Of a DNA stretch of 60,129 nucleotides, positions 2,647 through 28,234 are shown piece by piece; positions within the stretch are counted from its first letter, which is position 1; every line of letters begins with the position of its first letter. The position numbers and the translations under genes are program-made. The notes beneath the pieces are model-generated. The model was not told the origin of the DNA and searched no databases. It was given only the letters and a program-made list of their open reading frames with translations. Source of the stretch: a virus (Duplodnaviria; Caudoviricetes); the IMG/VR virus record IMGVR_UViG_3300011113_000688, positions 1-60,129 of that record; one strand, written 5' to 3'.

Positions 2647-4113
2647 ATGACTCGTTCAAAGTCACCTACATGGTCACGTGCAGAGTGGACCATTCAAGAG
2701 TTTATCTCACGTGCTGGTACCGTCGATATGAATCCCGTCGGACAGCGCAACTCGGTTGAATCACGTAAGCGTGAAAAATCAAAAGCAATTATGCGTTCCA
2801 TCTTTGAAGGTGGTGATATCTGCGAAATTGCACTGCGCCATATGGTCAAAAATATTCCTGGTGTGACACATGAGTATCGCTCAATCGATGGTGGACACCG
2901 CAAACGTGCCATTTGGGATTTCATAAACAACAAATTTCGCCTTCCATATGATTTGGAAGTGTACATTGGAAACAAATCCTATGATATTTCTGAATTGACA
3001 TACGGTGAACTACCAACTGTCGTACAAGATTATCTTTTAAACTACACATTGCGTTTGGTTATCTACGACAAATCGACAACTGACGCACAAGCCGGCTATC
3101 TTTTCCGCTTGCGTAACAAATCTACGCAGGTAAATTTTCAAGAGATGTTGAATTCTTTTGAAGATAATCTGGTAGCAAAGCTGGTTCGTGAAACTGCACG
3201 TGCTATTCCACAATTGAACAATGTTCCTCACTCACTTTTCGTGACAACTTTTACGAAAAAAGATGAAGAGAAGCCAGTTTTTTGGCAAGTAACACCAAGT
3301 CGTTTGTTGTTTGATGAGTTTGTTGCACGTTTTTTGTGTGTGTTGATCAAAGATAATGGTGTACAGACCGCTTCAAATGATGAATTGGAGAATATGTACG
3401 TTACTTTGGGTGATCCAGATGATGGTGAGTGGGTAAAAAATCCTGCGCTGGCGGCTGATGCAGCAAAAAAACTCAAGGCTGGATTGAATTTTATACAAAA
3501 ATATGCAGAGACACGTAAAAAACTTGCAAATGGTGCGGGTCTTACACTACGTGAAGCCGTAATGTTGACACGAATCTATGCGTATCTTGAAAAAGAGTAT
3601 GCGGGTTCATGGAAAATTGCTGACTTTGAAGTGTTCTATTCAAATTTCAAACCAGCACTTGATGATTTTGTTGGTGCAGGTTCGAAAAATGGTCCATGGG
3701 TCAACGAAATCGTATGGGGTGACCGCACAAAAGCCGAAGCAATGAAAGGTTTTCTCGGTGAGTATGGCGTATTGAAGAAAGTAACCGATACTGTTGAGTG
3801 GTTGCAAGAATCTCTTGAAAAGCATTATGTGCCAATTGAGATGTTGATTGTCGTAAAAGATAAAAATCGCTCAATTAGTCGTGATCTTTTAGAGACAATT
3901 TGGATCAAGCAAGGTAAAAAGTGTGATGTTACACAGAAGCCTTTGAACTTTGCTGATGCTGTTGCTGGTCACATTAAAGCACACTCTGAAGGGGGTTCGT
4001 CGACCGTTGCTAACATTGTAGCGATACACAAAGATATTAATGCTAAGATGGGTACAATGAATCTCGAAGACTTCAAACGTGCATATTGGATCGCTAAAGA
4101 AGAAAATATTTAA
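2647..4113 (+). CDS. DUF262 (ParB/Srx-like, GmrSD-type) domain protein with C-terminal HNH nuclease
   Basis: QR...IDGGHR...F.LRN (DUF262-like motifs); C-terminal GHIKAHSEGG..TVAN...IN HNH motif; GGAG SD before ATG2647. Confidence 0.75.
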   Translation: MTRSKSPTWSRAEWTIQEFISRAGTVDMNPVGQRNSVESRKREKSKAIMRSIFEGGDICEIALRHMVKNIPGVTHEYRSIDGGHRKRAIWDFINNKFRLPYDLEVYIGNKSYDISELTYGELPTVVQDYLLNYTLRLVIYDKSTTDAQAGYLFRLRNKSTQVNFQEMLNSFEDNLVAKLVRETARAIPQLNNVPHSLFVTTFTKKDEEKPVFWQVTPSRLLFDEFVARFLCVLIKDNGVQTASNDELENMYVTLGDPDDGEWVKNPALAADAAKKLKAGLNFIQKYAETRKKLANGAGLTLREAVMLTRIYAYLEKEYAGSWKIADFEVFYSNFKPALDDFVGAGSKNGPWVNEIVWGDRTKAEAMKGFLGEYGVLKKVTDTVEWLQESLEKHYVPIEMLIVVKDKNRSISRDLLETIWIKQGKKCDVTQKPLNFADAVAGHIKAHSEGGSSTVANIVAIHKDINAKMGTMNLEDFKRAYWIAKEENI

Positions 4114-6309: not shown

Positions 6310-6344
6310 ATTGTAGTTTAGTTCGAACTGTATACAAACCCCGA
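6292..6344 (+). promoter_or_regulatory. Antiterminator helix, mutually exclusive with the terminator at 6336-6369
   Basis: TCGG-A-GGTTTGTGTATAG (6292-6309) pairs with CTGTATACAAACCCCGA (6328-6344): 17 bp, 2 G-U pairs, 1 bulge. Confidence 0.7.
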
Positions 6345-6369
6345 AATCTAAAAGGCTTCGGGGTTTTTT
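6336..6369 (+). terminator. Intrinsic terminator immediately upstream of tRNA-Pro
   Basis: AAACCCCGAA...TTCGGGGTTT followed by TTT. Confidence 0.85.
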
Positions 6370-6377
6370 GTTTTTAG

Positions 6378-6454
6378 CTGAGTGTAGTTCAGCCTGGTAG
6401 AATGCCTGCTTTGGGAGCAGGAGGTCGGGAGTTCGATCCTCTCCACTCAGACCA
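6378..6454 (+). tRNA. tRNA-Pro(TGG)
   Basis: Cloverleaf, cctgc-ttTGGga-gcagg, encoded CCA. Confidence 0.93.
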
Positions 6455-6462
6455 AAAAGTAG

Positions 6463-6491
6463 TTGACAAAGTTTTGATGTTTCTGTAGAAT
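6463..6491 (+). promoter_or_regulatory. sigma70-type promoter TTGACA-N17-TAGAAT inside the tRNA array
   Basis: Consensus -35; TG just upstream of the -10. Confidence 0.75.
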
Positions 6492-6528
6492 GTTGTTTGT
6501 TGATTGATCTTTAAAAAATTTGTGAGAT

Positions 6529-6603
6529 GCACCCATCGTCTAGTGGTCAGGACATTGCCCTTTCACGGCAGTAACACCGGTTCGAATCCGGTTGGGTGTA
6601 CCA
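6529..6603 (+). tRNA. tRNA-Glu(TTC)
   Basis: Cloverleaf, CCA. Confidence 0.93.
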
Positions 6604-6613
6604 ATTATATTAT

Positions 6614-6690
6614 GGGTGTGTAACTCAGTTGGCTAGAGTATCAGACTTTTAATCTGAGAGTCGTGGGTTCGAATCCCACCGCACCTACCA
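6614..6690 (+). tRNA. tRNA-Lys(TTT)
   Basis: Cloverleaf, CCA. Confidence 0.93.
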
Positions 6691-6766
6691 TATTGAAGCA
6701 CATTGGTTCTGAGGGTTGTTCCGAGGATAATTCACTCCAATGGAGTCCCAGTGTGTTTCAATATGG
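6688..6766 (+). repeat. CCA-initiated long hairpin, copy 1
   Basis: CCATATTGAAGCACATTGG / CCAGTGTGTTTCAATATGG, 19 bp. Confidence 0.85.
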
Positions 6767-6844
6767 TTGCAAACAGCGTGATATGTACCCAACATTTGCA
6801 GTAGGGGAGGATCGGGATTCGTTGGTCTGTGTAAACAGCAGACA

Positions 6845-6903
6845 CCATATTGAAGCACATTACTAAGAGTCCGAGGTGTATGGCATAGTGTGCTTCAATG
6901 TGG
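6845..6903 (+). repeat. CCA-initiated long hairpin, copy 2
   Basis: CCATATTGAAGCACATTA / TAGTGTGCTTCAATGTGG, 18 bp. Confidence 0.85.
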
Positions 6904-6979
6904 CACTTTAGCATAGCTGGCCTAATGCGCTGCCCTGTCACGGCAGAGATCACGGGTTCGAATCCCGTAAGTGTCGCCA
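6902..6979 (+). tRNA. tRNA-Asp(GTC)
   Basis: Cloverleaf, CCA. Confidence 0.93.
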
Positions 6980-6986
6980 GAATTAT

Positions 6987-7062
6987 TGCTCAGTAGATCA
7001 GTCGGTAGATCAGCGGACTGTTAATCCGTGTGTCGTTGGTTCGAGCCCAACCTGAGCAGCCA
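6987..7062 (+). tRNA. tRNA-Asn(GTT)
   Basis: Cloverleaf, CCA. Confidence 0.93.
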
Positions 7063-7070
7063 GTAAATGT

Positions 7071-7144
7071 TGGGGATTAGTTAAATGGTATAACCACGGA
7101 TTTTGATTCCGTTGTCGTAAGTTCGATTCTTACATCCCCTGCCA
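7071..7144 (+). tRNA. tRNA-Gln(TTG)
   Basis: Cloverleaf, CCA. Confidence 0.92.
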
Positions 7145-7150
7145 GTGAAT

Positions 7151-7235
7151 GGGTGCCGAGAAGCATTGGTGACTTCAGCAGACTGTAAATCTGTCGCCTC
7201 AGGCATACGGGGTTCGAATCCCTGGGTACCCACCA
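7151..7235 (+). tRNA. tRNA-Tyr(GTA)
   Basis: Cloverleaf with V-arm, CCA. Confidence 0.9.
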
Positions 7236-7236
7236 A

Positions 7237-7312
7237 CGGTCTTTAGTAAAATGGATGATTACGGCGGGCTACGGACCCGCAGGTGGGAGTTCGATTCTCT
7301 CAGGACCGGCCA
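7237..7312 (+). tRNA. tRNA-Arg(ACG)
   Basis: gcggg-ctACGga-cccgc, CCA. Confidence 0.9.
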
Positions 7313-7404
7313 TATTGAAACATATTGCGAAGACCGCTGAGTCGTTCTGCATTGCTGGAGTCTTCTATGAAGAGGTGTCGCAAAGGCAGTATGTTTCAAT
7401 ATGG
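7310..7404 (+). repeat. CCA-initiated long hairpin, copy 3
   Basis: CCATATTGAAACATATTGC / GCAGTATGTTTCAATATGG, 19 bp, with compensatory changes. Confidence 0.85.
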
Positions 7405-7434
7405 AAAATAAAACAATCGCAAAAACTTGCGATT

Positions 7435-7463
7435 TATAAATACTCCAAAATATAGGAGTATTT
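7435..7463 (+). promoter_or_regulatory. T4-type late promoter TATAAATA overlapping an SD-sequestering hairpin
   Basis: TATAAATA 7435-7442; AAATACTCC / GGAGTATTT stem. Confidence 0.8.
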
Positions 7464-7464
7464 T

Positions 7465-7992
7465 ATGTGGAATTGTAAACACTGTAAAAAAGAGTTTGAT
7501 TTTAAATCTACCAGTGAAAAAGCAAATCACAGTAGATGGTGTGGATATAATCCGGATAAAAAAACTGAAAATGTTTTATCCGCTTTGAAAAAAAGACATG
7601 ATGAACAGTATGGTAAATTAACAAAAATTTCAGTATCTTGTGACTGTTGTGAAAAAGATTTTTTTGTGGAAGAAAGAGAATACCTATTTCCAAGTAAAAA
7701 AAAATATTTTTGTTCTAGAAAATGTGCTAATAGTGTAGGTGGTAAAGCCAAAAGAGACAAATACGGATTAACCGCATATACAAGTATTGCTAAAGAATAC
7801 TACGAAGAAAAATGTATTGTGTGTGGTTTTGATGAAATAGTTGAAGTTCATCACATAGATGAAAACAGAAGTAATAATGATGTAAAAAATTTGGTGTTTT
7901 TGTGTCCGAATCATCATTATTTGTTACATAGAAAAAAGTCAGAAAAAGTTAGTAATAGAATTACAGAGTTTTTAAAAGAAACATGGGGATAG
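7465..7992 (+). CDS. HNH homing endonuclease with Zn-finger motifs, inserted in the tRNA array
   Basis: CKHC, FCSRKC, CIVCG...VHHIDENRSNN...NLVFLCPNHH; AT-rich; stop codon lies in the tRNA-Ala acceptor stem. Confidence 0.85.
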   Translation: MWNCKHCKKEFDFKSTSEKANHSRWCGYNPDKKTENVLSALKKRHDEQYGKLTKISVSCDCCEKDFFVEEREYLFPSKKKYFCSRKCANSVGGKAKRDKYGLTAYTSIAKEYYEEKCIVCGFDEIVEVHHIDENRSNNDVKNLVFLCPNHHYLLHRKKSEKVSNRITEFLKETWG

Positions 7993-8063
7993 GGACTGCT
8001 TGGGGTGGTCACTTCACTTGCAATGAAGAATACAGTTCGGTTCGAATCCGAATATCTCCACCA
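7985..8063 (+). tRNA. tRNA-Ala(TGC)
   Basis: G3:U70, cttca-ctTGCaa-tgaag, CCA. Confidence 0.88.
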
Positions 8064-8074
8064 AAGTATTTAAT

Positions 8075-8159
8075 GCTGGAGTCCCATAGCGGCAATTGGA
8101 CTTGCCTTGTAAGCAAGCGGGTAAAACCTCCGTGAGTTCGAGTCTCACCTCCAGCACCA
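8075..8159 (+). tRNA. tRNA-Thr(TGT) with an unusual long variable arm
   Basis: cttgc-ctTGTaa-gcaag; V-arm ggt-aaa-acc; CCA. Confidence 0.85.
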
Positions 8160-8165
8160 GACTAT

Positions 8166-8241
8166 CGCAGAGTATGGAAGTGGTCATCCGCTCGGTCTCA
8201 TAAGCCGAGAATCGCAGGTTCGAATCCTGCCTCTGCAACCA
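8166..8241 (+). tRNA. tRNA-fMet(CAT)
   Basis: C1:A72 mismatch, CAT anticodon, CCA. Confidence 0.85.
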
Positions 8242-8255
8242 TTTATAGGTGAAAC

Positions 8256-8723
8256 GTGAAAAAAGAAATTGATGTAAACGAAGTTGCCGCATTTCTTGAT
8301 ACATGTGGTCCAGATACAAAAGTGTATGTTGGCGCCGATTCTGAACGATTTCAGATTGGGGGTGAATGGTATGCTGACTACATTTTGGCTGTTGTCGTTC
8401 ATATCGATGGTCGTCATGGTTGTAAGATATTTGGTGCTGTACAGCGTGAACGTGATTTCGAACAAAAGAAAAGTCGACCACGTTTTCGTTTGATGAATGA
8501 AGTTTATAAAGTAGCAGATTTGTATTTGAAATTGTATGAAGTAATACCGCATGATATACAGATTCATTTGGATATCAACCCAAGTGAGATGCATGGTAGT
8601 TCGTGTGTGGTAAATGAAGCGATTGGTTATGTACGTGGTACATGTAATGTGATACCATTGATAAAACCAAAAGCGTTTGCTGCAAGTTATGCGGCAGATC
8701 GTTTCAAAAGTTTAGTAGCGTAG
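8256..8723 (+). CDS. RNase H-like YkuK (DUF458) family protein
   Basis: VYVGADS...RLMNEV...IHLDIN...ASYAAD motifs. Confidence 0.8.
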   Translation: MKKEIDVNEVAAFLDTCGPDTKVYVGADSERFQIGGEWYADYILAVVVHIDGRHGCKIFGAVQRERDFEQKKSRPRFRLMNEVYKVADLYLKLYEVIPHDIQIHLDINPSEMHGSSCVVNEAIGYVRGTCNVIPLIKPKAFAASYAADRFKSLVA

Positions 8724-8797
8724 CGGGTATAATTCAGGGGTAGAATGTTTCCTTGCCAAGGAAAATGTCGTCAGTTCGAATCTGACTACCCGCTCCA
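8723..8797 (+). tRNA. tRNA-Gly(GCC)
   Basis: Cloverleaf, TCCA end. Confidence 0.92.
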
Positions 8798-8805
8798 AGT
8801 TTTAT

Positions 8806-8879
8806 CTCGATGTAGTGTAATGGTAGCACTGCGATCTCCAAAATCGTAAGTTGCGGTTCGAGTCCGTACATCGGGGCCA
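8806..8879 (+). tRNA. tRNA-Trp(CCA)
   Basis: gcgat-ctCCAaa-atcgt, CCA. Confidence 0.88.
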
Positions 8880-8881
8880 AT

Positions 8882-8976
8882 GGTAGACAGCACTGGTGTG
8901 CGGCGGAGACTTATAAACTCTGGAGAGTGGTCAGATGGGCTGCAACGGCTAGGTTCGAATCCTAGGTCTACTACCA
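8882..8976 (+). tRNA. tRNA-Ile(TAT), non-canonical (reduced D-arm, long V-arm)
   Basis: GGTAGAC/GTCTACT acceptor stem, ctTATaa loop, T-arm ctagg-TTCGAAT-cctag, CCA. Confidence 0.75.
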
Positions 8977-8983
8977 GAACAAT

Positions 8984-9058
8984 GGTGTCTATAGTGTAGT
9001 GGTAGCATTACTCTCTGTGAAAGAGTAGGTACGGGGTCGGTACCCGTTAGACACCCCA
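8984..9058 (+). tRNA. tRNA-His(GTG)
   Basis: G-1:C73, actct-ctGTGaa-agagt; atypical T-loop GTCGGTA. Confidence 0.85.
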
Positions 9059-9065
9059 GCAGTAA

Positions 9066-9141
9066 GGTGCTTTAGCAAATGTGGTCATTGCAGCGGTCTG
9101 AAGAACCGATGAAGTTGGTTCGATTCCAACAGGCACCACCA
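9066..9141 (+). tRNA. tRNA-Phe(GAA)
   Basis: Cloverleaf, CCA. Confidence 0.88.
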
Positions 9142-9142
9142 T

Positions 9143-9216
9143 TGTCCTGTAGTTCAATGGTAGAACCTACGACTGATAATCGTATAACACAAGTTCGATT
9201 CTTGTCAGGACAACCA
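9143..9216 (+). tRNA. tRNA-Ile(GAT)
   Basis: Cloverleaf, CCA. Confidence 0.92.
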
Positions 9217-9220
9217 GAAT

Positions 9221-9295
9221 GGTAGTGTAGCATAATGGTAGTGCGCCACCTTCATACGGTGTCAGGTGTAAGTTCGAATCTTACCACTACTACCA
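9221..9295 (+). tRNA. tRNA-Met(CAT), elongator (Ile2 not excluded)
   Basis: Cloverleaf, CAT anticodon, CCA. Confidence 0.85.
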
Positions 9296-9321
9296 ATATA
9301 AGTAAGCGTGTGAGGCGATGT

Positions 9322-9396
9322 GCATCGTTAGTTCAGTGGTAGAATCCCTGCCTTACAAGCAGGTTGTCGGTGGTTCGAATCCATCACGATGCACCA
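9322..9396 (+). tRNA. tRNA-Val(TAC)
   Basis: Cloverleaf, CCA. Confidence 0.93.
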
Positions 9397-9401
9397 ATAA
9401 T

Positions 9402-9479
9402 GCAACGGTGGCAGAGTGGTCCAATGCAAGGGACTGCAAATCCCTAAAGCCGTCAGTTCGAATCTGACCCGTTGCTCCA
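9402..9479 (+). tRNA. tRNA-Cys(GCA)
   Basis: Cloverleaf, U73, CCA. Confidence 0.92.
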
Positions 9480-9484
9480 GTTTT

Positions 9485-9574
<90 letters not shown>

Positions 9575-9577
9575 AAT

Positions 9578-9649
9578 GTCTCGGTCAGTACGGTGGGACG
9601 TACAGATGGACAACACTAGGACAAGGTTCGAATCCAAACTGAGACACCA
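9578..9649 (+). ncRNA. tRNA-like RNA without a canonical anticodon arm
   Basis: GTCTCGG/CTGAGAC-A-CCA acceptor stem, GGTTCGAATCC T-loop, internal GTACG/CGTAC hairpin. Confidence 0.65.
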
Positions 9650-9663
9650 AAATAAAAGAAAAT

Positions 9664-9789
9664 ATGGTAACATTAAAAATTATTCTAACAATTATTTGTT
9701 ACTGGGTGCTTATGGGTGTTAGTGTCGCACTCATCATGGTACTTTTTTATGGTTTAGCGGTAATTTTAGGAGAGTTGGCAGAGTGGTAA
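9664..9789 (+). CDS. Possible small membrane peptide (41 aa) overlapping tRNA-Ser(GCT)
   Basis: MVTLKIILTIICYWVLMGVSVALIMVLFYGLAVILGELAEW; weak SD. Confidence 0.35.
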   Translation: MVTLKIILTIICYWVLMGVSVALIMVLFYGLAVILGELAEW

Positions 9790-9855
9790 TGCACCGGATT
9801 GCTAATCCGCCGTTTCGAAAGAGGCGCACAGGTTCGAATCCTGTACTCTCCGCCA
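9769..9855 (+). tRNA. tRNA-Ser(GCT)
   Basis: Class II cloverleaf, G73, CCA. Confidence 0.92.
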
Positions 9856-9856
9856 C

Positions 9857-9885
9857 TTGACAAACAATTTTTTCTGATTTATACT
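9857..9885 (+). promoter_or_regulatory. sigma70-type promoter TTGACA-N17-TATACT (probably a leaderless transcript)
   Basis: ATG9893 lies 7 nt after the -10 box. Confidence 0.8.
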
Positions 9886-9892
9886 ACATTCT

Positions 9893-10051
9893 ATGAATAA
9901 AAAATCACAAAAATTGCGAAAACCACGTAATTTTGTTGCTAAAGACTTGTTCACGCCGAAGTTTCGCATGAAAGTTGAGCATTCGGCGACAAAAATACAT
10001 AACCGAGCAGTTGAAAAACAAAACTTTAGGAAAAATTATGCCTTCCTCTGA
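9893..10051 (+). CDS. Small basic ArfA-like peptide (52 aa), missing from the ORF track
   Basis: RNFVAKDLFTPKFRMKVE resembles the ArfA core NAIEALLHDPLFRQRVE. Confidence 0.5.
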   Translation: MNKKSQKLRKPRNFVAKDLFTPKFRMKVEHSATKIHNRAVEKQNFRKNYAFL

Positions 10052-10472
10052 TGAAAAGTTGCAAAAAGTTGAGCCGGAAGCAATTTCTGGCGATGAAATG
10101 AGTAGATTCGACGGCTTTTATTTTGTTCCCGACTATGATGACTTTGAAGGAAACTACAAATTAGCGTTTTTCAACTTTAAAGAAGAGTGGACACTTGCAG
10201 AACCCATTGAAAAATCACAATTAGGCTACAAATATCACATGGCATTCTTCAAAGAAGATGAAAATGGCATGCCACAGTTTGATGATGCGTTTGAAGCGAT
10301 ACTAGGCGACCCAATTGTGTACATAAAAAATCTTGTTGGCTCTGGTTTGTCAGGTTGTATCGTCAAAAAAACAGAAACATCTGAAAGTTGGTGGGTTGAG
10401 TATCTTGATTTTGTTACAGGCAACGAGTTTAAGCAAAAAGTGAACGATGCACTTAAATCTTTAGCGGAGTAA
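10038..10472 (+). CDS. Acidic hypothetical protein
   Basis: ORF track; likely start ATG10038 with AGGA SD. Confidence 0.65.
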   Translation: MPSSDEKLQKVEPEAISGDEMSRFDGFYFVPDYDDFEGNYKLAFFNFKEEWTLAEPIEKSQLGYKYHMAFFKEDENGMPQFDDAFEAILGDPIVYIKNLVGSGLSGCIVKKTETSESWWVEYLDFVTGNEFKQKVNDALKSLAE

Positions 10473-10475
10473 ATT

Positions 10476-10772
10476 ATGAATACTAAAAATGTTTTTTCTG
10501 GTGACAGTGAAGATGCTGAAATTGGTCGTAAATGGCTGATTGAATTGCTTGAGAATCAATCCGTTGAAATTATTTTCACGAAAAAAGACGGAACTGAGCG
10601 TACAATGAAATGCACACTGATGGAAAAATATCTACCAGAGACAGTTGGCTCAGGAAAAGCAAAAAATGACGAAGTTCTTGCCGTTTATGATTTAGAAAAA
10701 GAAGGTTGGCGTAGTTTTCGTTGGGATTCAATCAAAGAAGTACATTTTTCGTTGGAGAGTGAGAATGCCTAA
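10476..10772 (+). CDS. WYL_2/DUF2693-like SH3-fold protein
   Basis: FTKKDGTERTMKCTL...VYDLEKEGWRSFR. Confidence 0.75.
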   Translation: MNTKNVFSGDSEDAEIGRKWLIELLENQSVEIIFTKKDGTERTMKCTLMEKYLPETVGSGKAKNDEVLAVYDLEKEGWRSFRWDSIKEVHFSLESENA

Positions 10773-11055
10773 GTATATCGTTGAGCAATTGTCTATTTTT
10801 CGTAATGTTTATGTGATCGAAGCGGAATCTGAAGAAGAAGCTGTGAAGATTTCTGAATATGCTGATGATAATTGGCAAGAATGGCTTGGTTGCGTTAAAG
10901 TTGACATAAATGAATATAGTGATGAACGCATTGCTTACTTCAAAAACAAGCAATATTACTGGAATGGTGTAACATATAAAGATAAAGATGGATATCTTGC
11001 ATATCATCACCCATCTGGTGAAGATGTTGAACGAAAAGAGATTCTCATCAAATAG
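10759..11055 (+). CDS. Hypothetical protein
   Basis: ORF track. Confidence 0.65.
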   Translation: MRMPKYIVEQLSIFRNVYVIEAESEEEAVKISEYADDNWQEWLGCVKVDINEYSDERIAYFKNKQYYWNGVTYKDKDGYLAYHHPSGEDVERKEILIK

Positions 11056-11060
11056 TTTTA

Positions 11061-11134
11061 GCGGGATTAGTTTAATGGCAAAACTTGAGATTTCCAATCT
11101 TACGTTGTCAGTTCGATTCTGACATCCCGCTCCA
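11061..11134 (+). tRNA. tRNA-Gly(TCC)
   Basis: Cloverleaf, TCCA end. Confidence 0.9.
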
Positions 11135-27046: not shown

Positions 27047-27225
27047 TGCTATACGCACTCATTGTAACGGTTATCATTTCAGGTTCAGTTACAGAATCAC
27101 AATGGAAAACTTTTGATACATATGAGGAATGCCATGAAGTGGCATCAACAATCGTGCGTCATAGAGATTACATCGTGGCACGTTGTGTGCTACAAGAAAG
27201 AATTGTTGTAACTCCTTCAAAGTGA
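27046..27225 (+). CDS. Small exported/membrane protein (59 aa)
   Basis: Hydrophobic N-terminus, F.TYEEC...C; TAATG coupling. Confidence 0.5.
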   Translation: MLYALIVTVIISGSVTESQWKTFDTYEECHEVASTIVRHRDYIVARCVLQERIVVTPSK

Positions 27226-27505
27226 AGGCATTCTGGACGGCGGGGCAGTACCGCCCTCGTCCACCAGAAGCACATAGTTGTCCTAGATGAAAGAAACCTC
27301 TGAGGGCTCTAGTGGGGATTGTGTGCTTCTGATGGGCGAGAAATAGTTTCGACAGGGTGAGATAGTGGAGAAGGCAACACGAAAGGCGATGGACGTAATC
27401 CAAGCAAATAAATTATCTGCAAACGATAATTACTACGCAATGGCTGCTTAAATAGCCTTGCTGGGGTTTAAGTGGGCTGTACCTTATTACCAAAACAGTC
27501 CACAT
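27205..27505 (+). ncRNA. ssrA: Circularly permuted (two-piece) tmRNA, tag ANDNYYAMAA
   Basis: Acceptor piece ends CTCGTCC-A-CCA (27266); intervening hairpin 27267-27333; coding piece starts GGGCGAG (27334, G3:U70) then AAATAGTTTCGAC; tag 27419-27451; outer ends approximate. Confidence 0.92.
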
Positions 27506-27523
27506 CATATTCAGAGATACATC

Positions 27524-28234
27524 ATGCGTGTTTACATTGGTCCTTATACAAACTGGTTTGGTCCTTATCAATTAGCAGAACTGCTTTGCTTTTGGGTAAA
27601 AAAAGTACCTGATGAGTATGGATTCAAACGACATCCCGATTGGGTTCACGACTTTGGTACATGGTTGGCTGAAGATAAAAACGGCAATGATTCTTGGCTA
27701 ACTAAGTTTTGTCAGTGGATAGAAAGTTACAAAGAACGCAAAATCGAAGTGCGTATTGACAAGTACGATACATGGTCAATGGATCACACACTGGCAAATA
27801 TAATTTTGCCGATGCTCAAACAACTTCAAGCAACAAAACATGGTTCACCTATGATTGACATTGAAGATGTACCAGAAGAACTTCGTATAACTGGTTATGA
27901 CGATGGCTCATCACAATTTAGATTGAAGTTTGAAGATGATGAGCAATTTCAAAAAGAATCATGGGATATCACACATCGTCGTTGGGAATGGGTGTTGAAT
28001 GAAATGATTTTTGCCTTTGAACATCTGCTTGATGATTCGTGGGAAGAAGCATATCGTTCAGGTCATATCGATATGCAGTTTGTGCCATGTGAAGATAATC
28101 CGAAACTATCACGCATGGTAGATGGTCCTAATCACACATATCAATGTGATTATGATGGTATGCAAAAGATTTATGACCGTATGGACAACGGTTTTCGTCT
28201 GTTCGGTAAATACTATCGTGGACTTTGGGATTAA
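27524..28234 (+). CDS. Conserved hypothetical phage protein (IDKYDTWSMDHTLA...LFGKYYRGLWD)
   Basis: Start moved to ATG27524 because the upstream extension lies in the tmRNA. Confidence 0.78.
   Translation: MRVYIGPYTNWFGPYQLAELLCFWVKKVPDEYGFKRHPDWVHDFGTWLAEDKNGNDSWLTKFCQWIESYKERKIEVRIDKYDTWSMDHTLANIILPMLKQLQATKHGSPMIDIEDVPEELRITGYDDGSSQFRLKFEDDEQFQKESWDITHRRWEWVLNEMIFAFEHLLDDSWEEAYRSGHIDMQFVPCEDNPKLSRMVDGPNHTYQCDYDGMQKIYDRMDNGFRLFGKYYRGLWD

Follow-up and report, generated by a model that had tools for sequence, protein, structure and literature searches.

RNase III processing stems, such as those of the rRNA operon leader and trailer and the T7 early sites, are long near-perfect helices in polycistronic stable-RNA transcripts, made by sequences on either side of an RNA module. 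In Y RNA and YrlA, a closing stem made from both ends of the molecule carries a variable, sometimes tRNA-like, apical module, and in the TMER genes of murine gammaherpesvirus 68 (MHV68) a tRNA-like RNA is followed by one or two pre-microRNA hairpins, released by tRNase Z. Phage T4 holds two non-tRNA stable RNAs, rnaC and rnaD (species 1 and 2), inside its transfer RNA (tRNA) cluster. In permuted genes for transfer-messenger RNA (tmRNA), the intervening sequence is absent from the mature RNA, its removal being ascribed to tRNA-processing enzymes (PMC11915505). PeSLs (promoter-early stem-loops) are short conserved stem-loop repeats that serve as homologous exchange points in T4-type genomes (PMC2839356; PMC4122927); they consist of a sigma-70-type promoter and a terminator and flank protein ORFans in hyperplastic regions, and Arbiol, Comeau and Krisch hold that T4-type recombination needs only small patches of homology (PMC2839356). 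Here we analyze a family of hairpins in the tRNA array of IMGVR_UViG_3300011113_000688, a 60,129-base IMG/VR virus fragment that is estimated to be 36% complete and is called the window below. We favor, with modest confidence, the reading that the stable-RNA operons of uncultured T4-like phages, together with those of at least one unrelated phage of 98 kb, house these hairpins as exchangeable cassettes that serve as spacers or intervening segments. No description of a repeated, CCA-anchored hairpin family with swappable cargo was found in the literature, subscription journals and supplements being outside the coverage of that search, and the family is apparently undescribed.

In the window, the family is represented by three inverted repeats in the tRNA array, elements 1, 2 and 3 (Table 1). 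Their arms lie at 6687-6706/6748-6767 (20 nt, 90% complementary), 6845-6862/6886-6903 (18 nt, 89% complementary) and 7310-7328/7386-7404 (19 nt, 95% complementary). A search with the 17-mer CCATATTGAAGCACATT, allowing up to three mismatches, returned six matches in the window, i.e., all six arms, whereas shuffled windows averaged 0.36 matches and none of 100 reached six. All three repeats of an earlier model-made reading of the letters (the original prediction) were thus recovered. As that reading also had it, the left arms begin at the CCA of the preceding RNA, which is tRNA-Lys, an unassigned 81-nt RNA and tRNA-Arg, respectively; element 1 opens with three base pairs made by the encoded CCA of tRNA-Lys (6688-6690). 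At the opposite end, the last two G of element 2 are the first two bases of tRNA-Asp (start 6902), and the 5' end of tRNA-Asp, as the RNase P site, would be the 3' boundary of element 2. Folded as the sense strand, elements 1, 2 and 3 reached -36.8, -23.6 and -36.2 kcal/mol (z = -6.2, -4.9 and -4.8); the antisense strand folded 4-12 kcal/mol more weakly (-25.0, -17.9 and -31.8 kcal/mol). These whole-element z-scores are dominated by the long stem. It is covariation in related copies that shows structure in the interiors; the window copies alone are insufficient for this.

Beyond the window, the stem of 17-19 bp, CCAUAUUGAARCAYAUU / AGUGUGUUUCAAUAUGG, occurs in more than 160 distinct copies in viral contigs, on the tRNA strand and inside tRNA arrays. 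Because the interiors are not alignable, pattern scans and a sequence-agnostic stem search took the place of a covariance model. A scan of viral contigs with the left arm CCATATTGAARCAYATT gave at least 124 loci; among the matches listed, the core pair TTGAARCAYA...TRTGYTTCAA was present within 200 nt at 109 of 124 viral loci, and in 0 of 120 matches from the same scan of prokaryote genomes (one per species). We estimate that the 120 single prokaryotic left-arm matches are in the range expected by chance. When 30-nt stretches were compared by BLAST (E <=10) with 50,697 GenBank phage records, the arms gave only chance matches of 16-20 nt in unrelated genes, at a sensitivity of a 16-17 nt exact match that diverged arms would escape, and megablast of the window's array against GenBank returned tRNA genes only. 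Rfam had no match to the elements in window positions 6600-7450 (E <=10), nor to elements or cargo in 38 loci (E <=0.1-1); these scans gave tRNA-type hits and chance hairpin hits (mir-653, mir-96) only. Canonical arms were found in 10 of 11 near-complete genomes (98, 159-214, 343 and 400 kb), with the paired arm hits of each genome confined to one region of a few kb and only 1-3 canonical-arm elements per complete genome, in the array region. The T4-type major capsid protein is encoded by 10 of the 11 genomes and not by the 98-kb genome. Canonical arms also occur in arrays whose neighboring YkuK-like protein is only 62-66% identical to that of the window.

The left-arm query contains CCA, and a scan with the right arm only was used to remove this bias. 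Of 136 unique matches, 125 were accompanied by a left arm with at least 15 of its 17 positions paired. The first bases of these 125 elements were CCA in 83, CTA in 14, GCA in 13, TTA in 9 and others in 6, so that the CCA adjacency that had been proposed from the window copies is common in the wider family and not obligatory. The tRNAs in the 400-nt flanks of the 125 elements lie on the same strand in 244 cases versus 8 on the opposite strand. The element starts on the CCA of an ARAGORN tRNA in 39 of the 125, in 57 of 120 in the left-arm set (among the matches listed) and in 52 of the 162 unique elements, while a further 57 of the 125 have a flank without a same-strand upstream tRNA. Many elements that lack a recognized upstream tRNA follow other RNAs ending in NCCA, some with T-arm motifs and some belonging to recurrent conserved families. 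The closing GG doubles as the start of the next tRNA in 14 of the 125 and, among the left-arm matches listed, in 19 of 120; in that same listed set, 8 of 128 elements have no tRNA within 1.5 kb. At three viral loci (L144, L147 and L263; such labels denote individual loci or arrays) a conserved segment of ~195 nt was seen between tRNA-Tyr and a cluster-0 element, starting ~195 nt upstream of the element. Its copies differ compensatorily, e.g., GGGTATGATAGCGTCATATC versus GGGTACGATAGCGTCGTATC, and it has no Rfam match.

Pair counts were taken from 119 elements that had been oriented solely by the tRNA strand. These elements hardly vary at positions 1-17: position 16 is U.G in 105 of 119, position 11 is G.U (54), A-U (43), G-C (20) or A.C (2), and position 14 is C-G (98), U.G (13) or U-A (8). 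Position 18 is the first variable position and is paired in 100 of 119 elements, with five pair types, and a frequent A-U at position 0 adds to the helix of 17-19 bp. Since the wobble pairs would be A.C mismatches on the other strand, the helix behaves as RNA of the tRNA strand. The sequence-agnostic search was made on 1560 unique CCA-encoding tRNA 3' ends from all collected viral loci. Stems with at least 15 of 17 pairs were found at 167 of the 1560 ends when anchored at C74, compared with 13 when the anchor was moved 37 nt upstream; with at least 16 pairs, the counts were 143 at C74 versus 0 at the shifted anchor. Among the 161 unique arm pairs there are diverged versions of the arms (e.g., CCAUAUAAAAACACAUU, CCAUAGUAAAGCAUAUU and CCAUAAUGAAAUACAUU), and at positions 4-18 both sides of the pair have changed, with 14 to 83 sequences affected at each position. 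The stems were selected without regard to positions 18 and 19, and these are paired in 80% and 58%, respectively, versus 41% and 38% after shuffling. The helix, including the CCA, is thus under selection, in agreement with the earlier statements that the CCA is paired and that substitutions, both G.U mismatches and changes on both sides, preserve pairing. Unrelated stem families in the same arrays are likewise anchored on CCA, so that CCA pairing is a general property of these spacers. CCA-starting hairpins with unrelated stems, e.g., CCATATTAGATTTGCAGT... and CCATTTGTTTAGTG..., were seen after tRNA-Asn in L465-L467, after tRNA-Trp in L465, and in L486, L525, L523 and L532. The window lacks the hairpin after tRNA-Asn and has tRNA-Gln 8 nt downstream instead.

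The stem encloses interiors, here called cargo, that differ widely. Grouping by interior gave 109 clusters for the 162 unique elements, and in the right-arm set the whole element is 57 to 275 nt long with a median of 91. Two cargo families show compensatory pairs, at 10 of 32 and 4 of 29 predicted pairs, so the proposal of a variable, structured cargo on a common stem was borne out. Cargo can also be absent: a loop-only hairpin of 39 nt fills the spacer between tRNA-Lys and tRNA-Asp in L472, tRNA spacers of this cargo-free form measure 39-41 nt, and cargo-free tmRNA segments measure 22 nt in L394, L398 and L402 and 25 nt in L462. A T-loop-like motif is present in 11 of 162 cargos, and in 7 of the 11 it lies 4-5 nt from the right arm, a placement that resembles a T arm stacked on an acceptor-like stem. 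One cargo family, of 10 copies, mostly follows the conserved ~195-nt RNA instead of a tRNA; in 9 of 10 copies of one cargo family a T-run comes after the hairpin.

To follow the elements at fixed sites, we used 80 arrays that had been gathered via the YkuK-like protein, independently of the hairpin. The element is present in 41 of 80 by the arm-based finder and in 35 of 80 by a tRNA-anchored criterion. Arrays with a YkuK 86-98% identical to that of the window share its gene order, except L474 (88%), and the junctions were compared across L464-L477, whose YkuK is 74-98% identical to the window's. At the junction that follows tRNA-Arg(ACG), these relatives carry different cargos, tandem elements or nothing (Table 1), as expected of the mobile-cassette-like turnover that had been suggested. 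Cargo A, the interior of element 3, directly abuts tRNA-Ala in L464 and L465, and L101 holds a near-identical cargo. The Lys-to-Asp junction shows the same kind of variation: the cargo of element 1 recurs there in L464, L465 and L468, relative to which the unit of unassigned RNA plus element 2 is an insertion in the window, and in L466 a new 141-nt element sits between the CCA of tRNA-Lys and an older element, which is displaced and now has no initial CCA. Because empty sites exist, the elements are dispensable for the flanking genes, and the short remnants at these sites fit a deletion across the hairpin. In L106 and L113 we observed an inverted tRNA gene between two elements; such an inversion would be the expected product of recombination between the inverted arms of neighboring elements. 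The repeat-bounded insertion, deletion and replacement between relatives at the Arg-to-Ala and Lys-to-Asp junctions of L464-L477 are like those of the PeSLs as far as the accessible text describes them; unlike the PeSLs so described, the hairpin elements have no promoter or terminator consensus, lie in stable-RNA operons, are anchored on CCA and are selected as an RNA helix. An identity with PeSLs was rejected for the three window elements, which show no sigma-70-like promoter with a terminator stem-loop.

The same hairpin family forms the intervening segment of the window's permuted tmRNA, as had been predicted. Downstream of the acceptor piece, whose last bases are ...CUCGUCCACCA (to 27266), a 67-nt segment folds as a hairpin with the stem CAGAAGCACA (27265-27274) / TGTGCTTCTG (27322-27331). 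This hairpin is without the UAUU/AAUA base of the tRNA-linked form, and AU precedes G1 of the coding piece, whose tag frame ends ...GCAAUGGCUGCUUAA. Two copies of the pattern GAAGCACA-N20-50-TGTGCTTC were found in the window, one belonging to element 2 and the other to the tmRNA segment, versus 0 in 100 shuffles. Relatives whose tmRNA DNA is 69-94% identical to that of the window over the blastn-aligned stretch gave 30 intervening segments, 14 of them unique, and all of these start right after CCACCA and end ...GAU before the GGG of the next piece. Their stems covary (GAAGCACAU, AAAGCACAU, GAAGUGUUG/CACUUC, AAAGUAUUC/GAAUACUUUU and GAAACAUAUUG/CAGUAUGUUUC). Six of the 14 unique segments, comprising four cargo types, match tRNA-linked elements of other contigs at 80-90% identity over 51-83 nt, and these counterparts follow the CCA of tRNA-Arg, tRNA-Gly, tRNA-Glu or tRNA-Leu. 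When aligned, the tRNA-linked and tmRNA forms differ only by the UAUU/AAUA base. The shared cargo and this alignment establish that the tRNA spacers and the tmRNA segment draw on one cassette pool. The hairpins are like the intervening sequence of a permuted tmRNA, which has the CCA of one piece before it and the 5' G of the following piece after it, and the window's segment is one such sequence; unlike it, the tRNA-linked copies join two different RNAs, have the extra UAUU/AAUA and belong to a family with swappable cargo. We found no description in the literature of intervening segments as a repeated, exchangeable family. Alignment of the phage tmRNA covers the full length of RF01850, the betaproteobacterial permuted model (135 bits, positions 1-331), which suggests that it was probably already permuted when acquired and that the segment was later occupied or exchanged; the earlier idea that the element explains the tmRNA permutation is therefore unlikely. 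The RF01850 consensus cAAGggCAUUc, right after the CCA, resembles the element's GAAGCACAUU (window 27264-27280), and from this similarity of sequence the element stem may derive from a cellular permuted tmRNA gene. No cellular betaproteobacterial permuted tmRNA was found in 151 sampled genomes of the class at E <=1e-10. In L447, more than 150 nt without the usual hairpin and with an ATG-led open stretch follow the tmRNA CCA, and this tmRNA may be disrupted or differently organized.

If the hairpins are exchangeable cassettes, each would be transcribed together with the tRNAs. The closing helix of 17-19 bp starts at C74 of the upstream CCA. It ends at UGG, whose two G are often the opening bases of the next tRNA, or which lies 2 nt ahead of G1 where the tmRNA coding piece follows. 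The apical cargo is an optional structured RNA of 4 to more than 200 nt. Because the cassette belongs to neither flanking RNA, it would have to be cut out. The boundary between AU and GG at the 5' end of the tRNA or tmRNA points to RNase P for the 3' cut, and bacterial RNase P favors U at -1. After that cut the 3' end of the hairpin would be base-paired and 3' exonucleases would be expected to stall, so that an endonuclease would be needed to free the CCA. Candidates for this 5' cut are RNase Z/BN, acting after the CCA, RNase E, acting at the AU-rich base between CCA and UAUU, and host RNase III, acting inside the 17-19 bp stem and followed by exonuclease trimming. RNase Z/BN is reported to cut after CCA in CCA-containing precursors and was historically needed for T4 tRNA maturation, and a helix of 17-19 bp is at the lower end of the length sufficient for RNase III (roughly two turns). 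Unlike known RNase III stems, the stem of the hairpin family encloses an optional cargo rather than the main product, and its base is fixed on CCA/GG. The upstream tRNA would not be chargeable until the 5' cut. At the DNA level, the near-identical arms would provide portable homology, and recombination between them would swap cargo, add or remove units of RNA plus hairpin and carry cassettes from tRNA junctions to the tmRNA segment or the other way. Cassettes would be deleted by slippage across the hairpin. Some points weigh against this picture of exchangeable spacers. Contact with the CCA is common and not obligatory, 42 of 125 elements being without an initial CCA, and the recombination mechanism is inferred from end states only. 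A pure spacer role also does not predict that the arms stay identical in arrays whose YkuK is only 62-66% identical and in genomes of 98-400 kb, a constancy that points to sequence-specific recognition, frequent transfer with homogenization, or both, and it likewise leaves the conserved U.G at position 16 unaccounted for. A bolder version, which we put forward tentatively as a possibility with the chances against it, is that the cassettes form a horizontally exchanged pool of small RNAs, intron-like without ligation, which tRNA-processing enzymes of the cell would excise precisely. In this version the released hairpins would be working phage RNAs read by one common factor, and the paired CCA would delay charging as a timed switch on part of the phage's tRNA set.

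In a different reading, the hairpins would be functional phage small RNAs on a common protein-binding scaffold, with the stem and its U.G as the recognition site, the apical domain as the working part, and the site after tRNAs as a means to supply expression and precise ends, in an architecture like that of Y RNA or MHV68. The U.G at position 16 and the arm sequence are kept in 105 of 119 elements, and the arms persist in arrays with 62-66% identical neighboring YkuK and in genomes from 98 to 400 kb. Cargo families are conserved compensatorily and retained on moving between tRNA junction and tmRNA segment, 11 of 162 cargos have the T-loop-like motif, 7 near the right arm, and one 10-copy cargo family mostly follows the ~195-nt RNA. 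Against such a scaffold, the cargo is dispensable, since both these junctions and the tmRNA segment can be filled by minimal hairpins, and it is extremely diverse (109 clusters among 162 elements); YrlA or other Rfam matches were not found in the window segment and 38 loci, TROVE (Ro60) was found in 0 of 16 records, and the compensatory arm changes in diverged arrays argue that a helix rather than a sequence is required. We consider this explanation rather unlikely. The comparison with MHV68 TMER, genes of a eukaryotic virus transcribed by Pol III and tied to the microRNA pathway, involves no sequence relation, and TMER is without a CCA-pairing closing stem. An identity with Y RNA or YrlA was rejected: the only YrlA matches were sub-threshold ones to tRNA genes (16-21 bits, where the gathering score is 69), TROVE was absent from the 16 records, and no more than 11 of 162 cargos have the T-loop-like motif.

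The turnover at junctions could instead be that of selfish miniature mobile DNA, MITE- or PATE-like or homing-associated, which would insert after CCA, be tolerated via tRNA processing and have no phage function. Presence, absence and replacement at one junction fit this, as do the 1-6 nt remnants that resemble arm ends (GAATAT, TATTAT), the same cargo at two loci ~20 kb apart, the newly inserted 141-nt element of L466, the inverted tRNAs between two elements, and homing endonuclease genes at the same junctions, i.e., the HNH gene of the window and relatives at 3 of 124 loci among the matches listed. That last figure also counts on the other side, HNH relatives being near only those 3 of 124 (among the matches listed). 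Comparison of filled and empty sites showed no target-site duplication, a Y1 transposase was found in 0 of 11 genomes, and canonical-arm copies number only 1-3 per complete genome and are clustered in the array. Neither the strict tRNA-strand bias (244 versus 8) nor the structural covariation of cargo is what a selfish element predicts, and T4-type recombination of PeSL cassettes needs no dedicated enzyme (PMC2839356). Taken together, we regard a selfish element as improbable. Derivation from a MITE or an IS200/IS605 palindrome was rejected, with PF01797 in 0 of 11 genomes and no target-site duplication. The long near-perfect inverted repeats, and the T-run in 9 of 10 copies of one cargo family, could also be those of a signal at the level of DNA or transcription, i.e., a terminator, an attenuator, a replication or packaging site or a cruciform target. 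However, the three window copies are neither terminator-like nor followed by a T-run, the elements are placed between co-oriented tRNAs without a spacer, only on the tRNA strand do the mismatches read as G.U (they would be A.C on the other), and folding of the antisense strand is weaker by 4-12 kcal/mol. Such a signal was already disfavored and has very little probability left. Neither promoter-like nor terminator-like calls were made on the three window elements, and the U-run after a G+C-rich hairpin that marks an intrinsic terminator was not found at the three copies, which led to the rejection of that identity.

Candidate partner proteins were searched for in the phage records. None of 16 element-bearing records, among which 11 have a completeness of 90% or more, yielded TROVE/Ro60 (PF05731), while control genomes matched as expected; this search covers phage records, and a host Rsr is possible. 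A phage RNase III was likewise found in 0 of 16 element-bearing records, and RNase III would therefore have to be that of the host. The proposal of RNase III as the processing enzyme is weakened to that extent, the host enzyme being still a candidate. The Y1 (IS200/IS605) transposase PF01797 was found in 0 of 11 genomes, other transposase families being outside the search. The other nuclease that had been proposed, the neighboring YkuK-like protein (PF04308), is encoded by 9 of 11 genomes, 5 of the 11 having been chosen via YkuK itself; of the six complete genomes found via the element, four have PF04308 and two, of 343 and 400 kb, do not. Because of these two genomes, and because only 35-41 of 80 YkuK-anchored arrays hold the element, the YkuK-like protein was rejected as a required partner. 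Within 2 kb of an element, HNH relatives occur at 3 and YkuK-like relatives at 9 of 124 loci, among the matches listed. Four RNA-labelled runs represent assembled contigs of mixed related phages, with 5-11% of sampled words, and carry no starts, ends or strand.

Annotation usually treats phage tRNA arrays as tRNAs in a row and gives no meaning to the spacers. In this uncultured freshwater-type T4-like group, many of the spacers belong to one conserved RNA family, which is strand-specific, has evolutionary dynamics of its own and also fills the intervening segment of the phage tmRNA. The family thereby offers a new and easily recognized RNA motif for the annotation of viral metagenomes and a testable case of CCA-encoded tRNA maturation before a stable hairpin, a possible control point of phage tRNA supply. 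It would be a second example, after PeSLs, of short conserved repeats that shuffle T4-type modules, in this case RNA genes, and it may illuminate the small stable RNAs of the T4 tRNA cluster. Like rnaC and rnaD of T4, the hairpins lie as non-tRNA RNAs inside a tRNA cluster; in T4 a single nucleotide separates the CCA of tRNA-Arg from the start of rnaD, and the homing endonuclease gene segB adjoins that tRNA; in the window element 3 follows tRNA-Arg and is itself followed by an HNH gene. Unlike the hairpin family, T4 has two fixed RNAs and no repeated family with a common closing helix, and no stem in common with rnaC or rnaD was seen on reading the T4 region.

Table 1. Hairpin elements, neighboring genes, tmRNA pieces and states of the junction after tRNA-Arg(ACG).
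Feature	Position	Strand	Arrays	Basis or remarks
Element 1	6688..6766	+		19-bp stem 6688-6706 / 6748-6766, 41-nt structured cargo
Element 2	6845..6903	+		18-bp stem 6845-6862 / 6886-6903, 23-nt interior
Element 3	7310..7404	+		19-bp stem 7310-7328 / 7386-7404, 57-nt cargo (cargo A)
tRNA-Lys(UUU)	6614..6690	+		ARAGORN; Rfam tRNA 71.2 bits
Unassigned 81-nt RNA ending ACCA, between elements 1 and 2	6767..6847	+		sequence
tRNA-Asp(GUC)	6902..6979	+		ARAGORN, Rfam
tRNA-Arg(ACG)	7237..7312	+		ARAGORN, Rfam; CCA 7310-7312 = base of element 3
HNH endonuclease gene between element 3 and tRNA-Ala	7465..7992	+		Pfam HNH_3/HNH_2 below curated cut-offs
tmRNA acceptor piece	27204..27266	+		Rfam RF04321 142 bits, RF01850 135 bits; CCA 27264-27266
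tmRNA intervening segment, same hairpin family	27267..27333	+		67 nt, folds as hairpin
tmRNA coding piece, start	27334..27451	+		5' GGGCGAG pairs with acceptor 3' strand, G3:U70
Arg(ACG)-to-Ala junction, cargo A			window, L464, L465	window with HNH gene before tRNA-Ala
Arg-to-Ala junction, cargo B			L467, L468	
Arg-to-Ala junction, cargo C			L472	bearing T arm
Arg-to-Ala junction, tandem elements D+B			L469	
Arg-to-Met junction, cargo E			L477	compensated stem
Arg-to-Ala junction, empty			L466, L475, L471, L473	only AT, A, GAATAT or TATTAT between CCA and GGGG
Arg-to-Ala junction, 1.5-kb insert			L470	no element

The window carries genes of a T4-like myovirus (gp32, gp59, RNase H and baseplate gp5/6/8/25/53), and the closest cultured relatives of its gp32 are those of cyanomyoviruses and of Pelagibacter phage HTVC008M, at 55-58% identity. 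ARAGORN called 22 tRNA genes at 6378-11134, all on the plus strand, and Rfam placed the permuted tmRNA at 27126-27524. The unassigned RNA between elements 1 and 2 folds no better than its shuffles (z = -0.04), and the segment has no relative among the collected viral loci. The HNH gene is context, outside the element; it is missing at the Arg-to-Ala junction of the element-bearing relatives L464, L465, L467, L468 and L472. ATGG stands on both sides of this insert (7405-7992). The junction is a landing site for protein genes too, with the HNH gene in the window and the unrelated 1.5-kb insert in L470.

Further observations concern the rest of the array. Two tRNA-like RNAs at 8882-8975 and 9578-9649, with a GGTTCGAATCC T-loop and an ACCA end, were called by neither ARAGORN nor Rfam, so that the array has more stable RNAs than the 22 annotated tRNAs; the first of them is ~94 nt long and may have a long extra arm. 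The 79-nt tRNA-Ala (7985-8063) overlaps the stop codon of the HNH gene and is below the gathering score of the Rfam tRNA model, and tRNA-Thr(UGU) at 8075-8159 has a 9-nt insertion in the variable region compared with L464, L465 and L468. A G+C-rich hairpin with a T-run (6338-6372) lies directly before tRNA-Pro. Between tRNA-Pro and tRNA-Glu there is a strong sigma-70-like site, TTGACA-17-TAGAAT (11/12), at 6463-6491, where a new transcript of the array may start. In the related array L474, ARAGORN called a tRNA with anticodon CUA (labelled Pyl) at 3869-3943, a possible amber suppressor.

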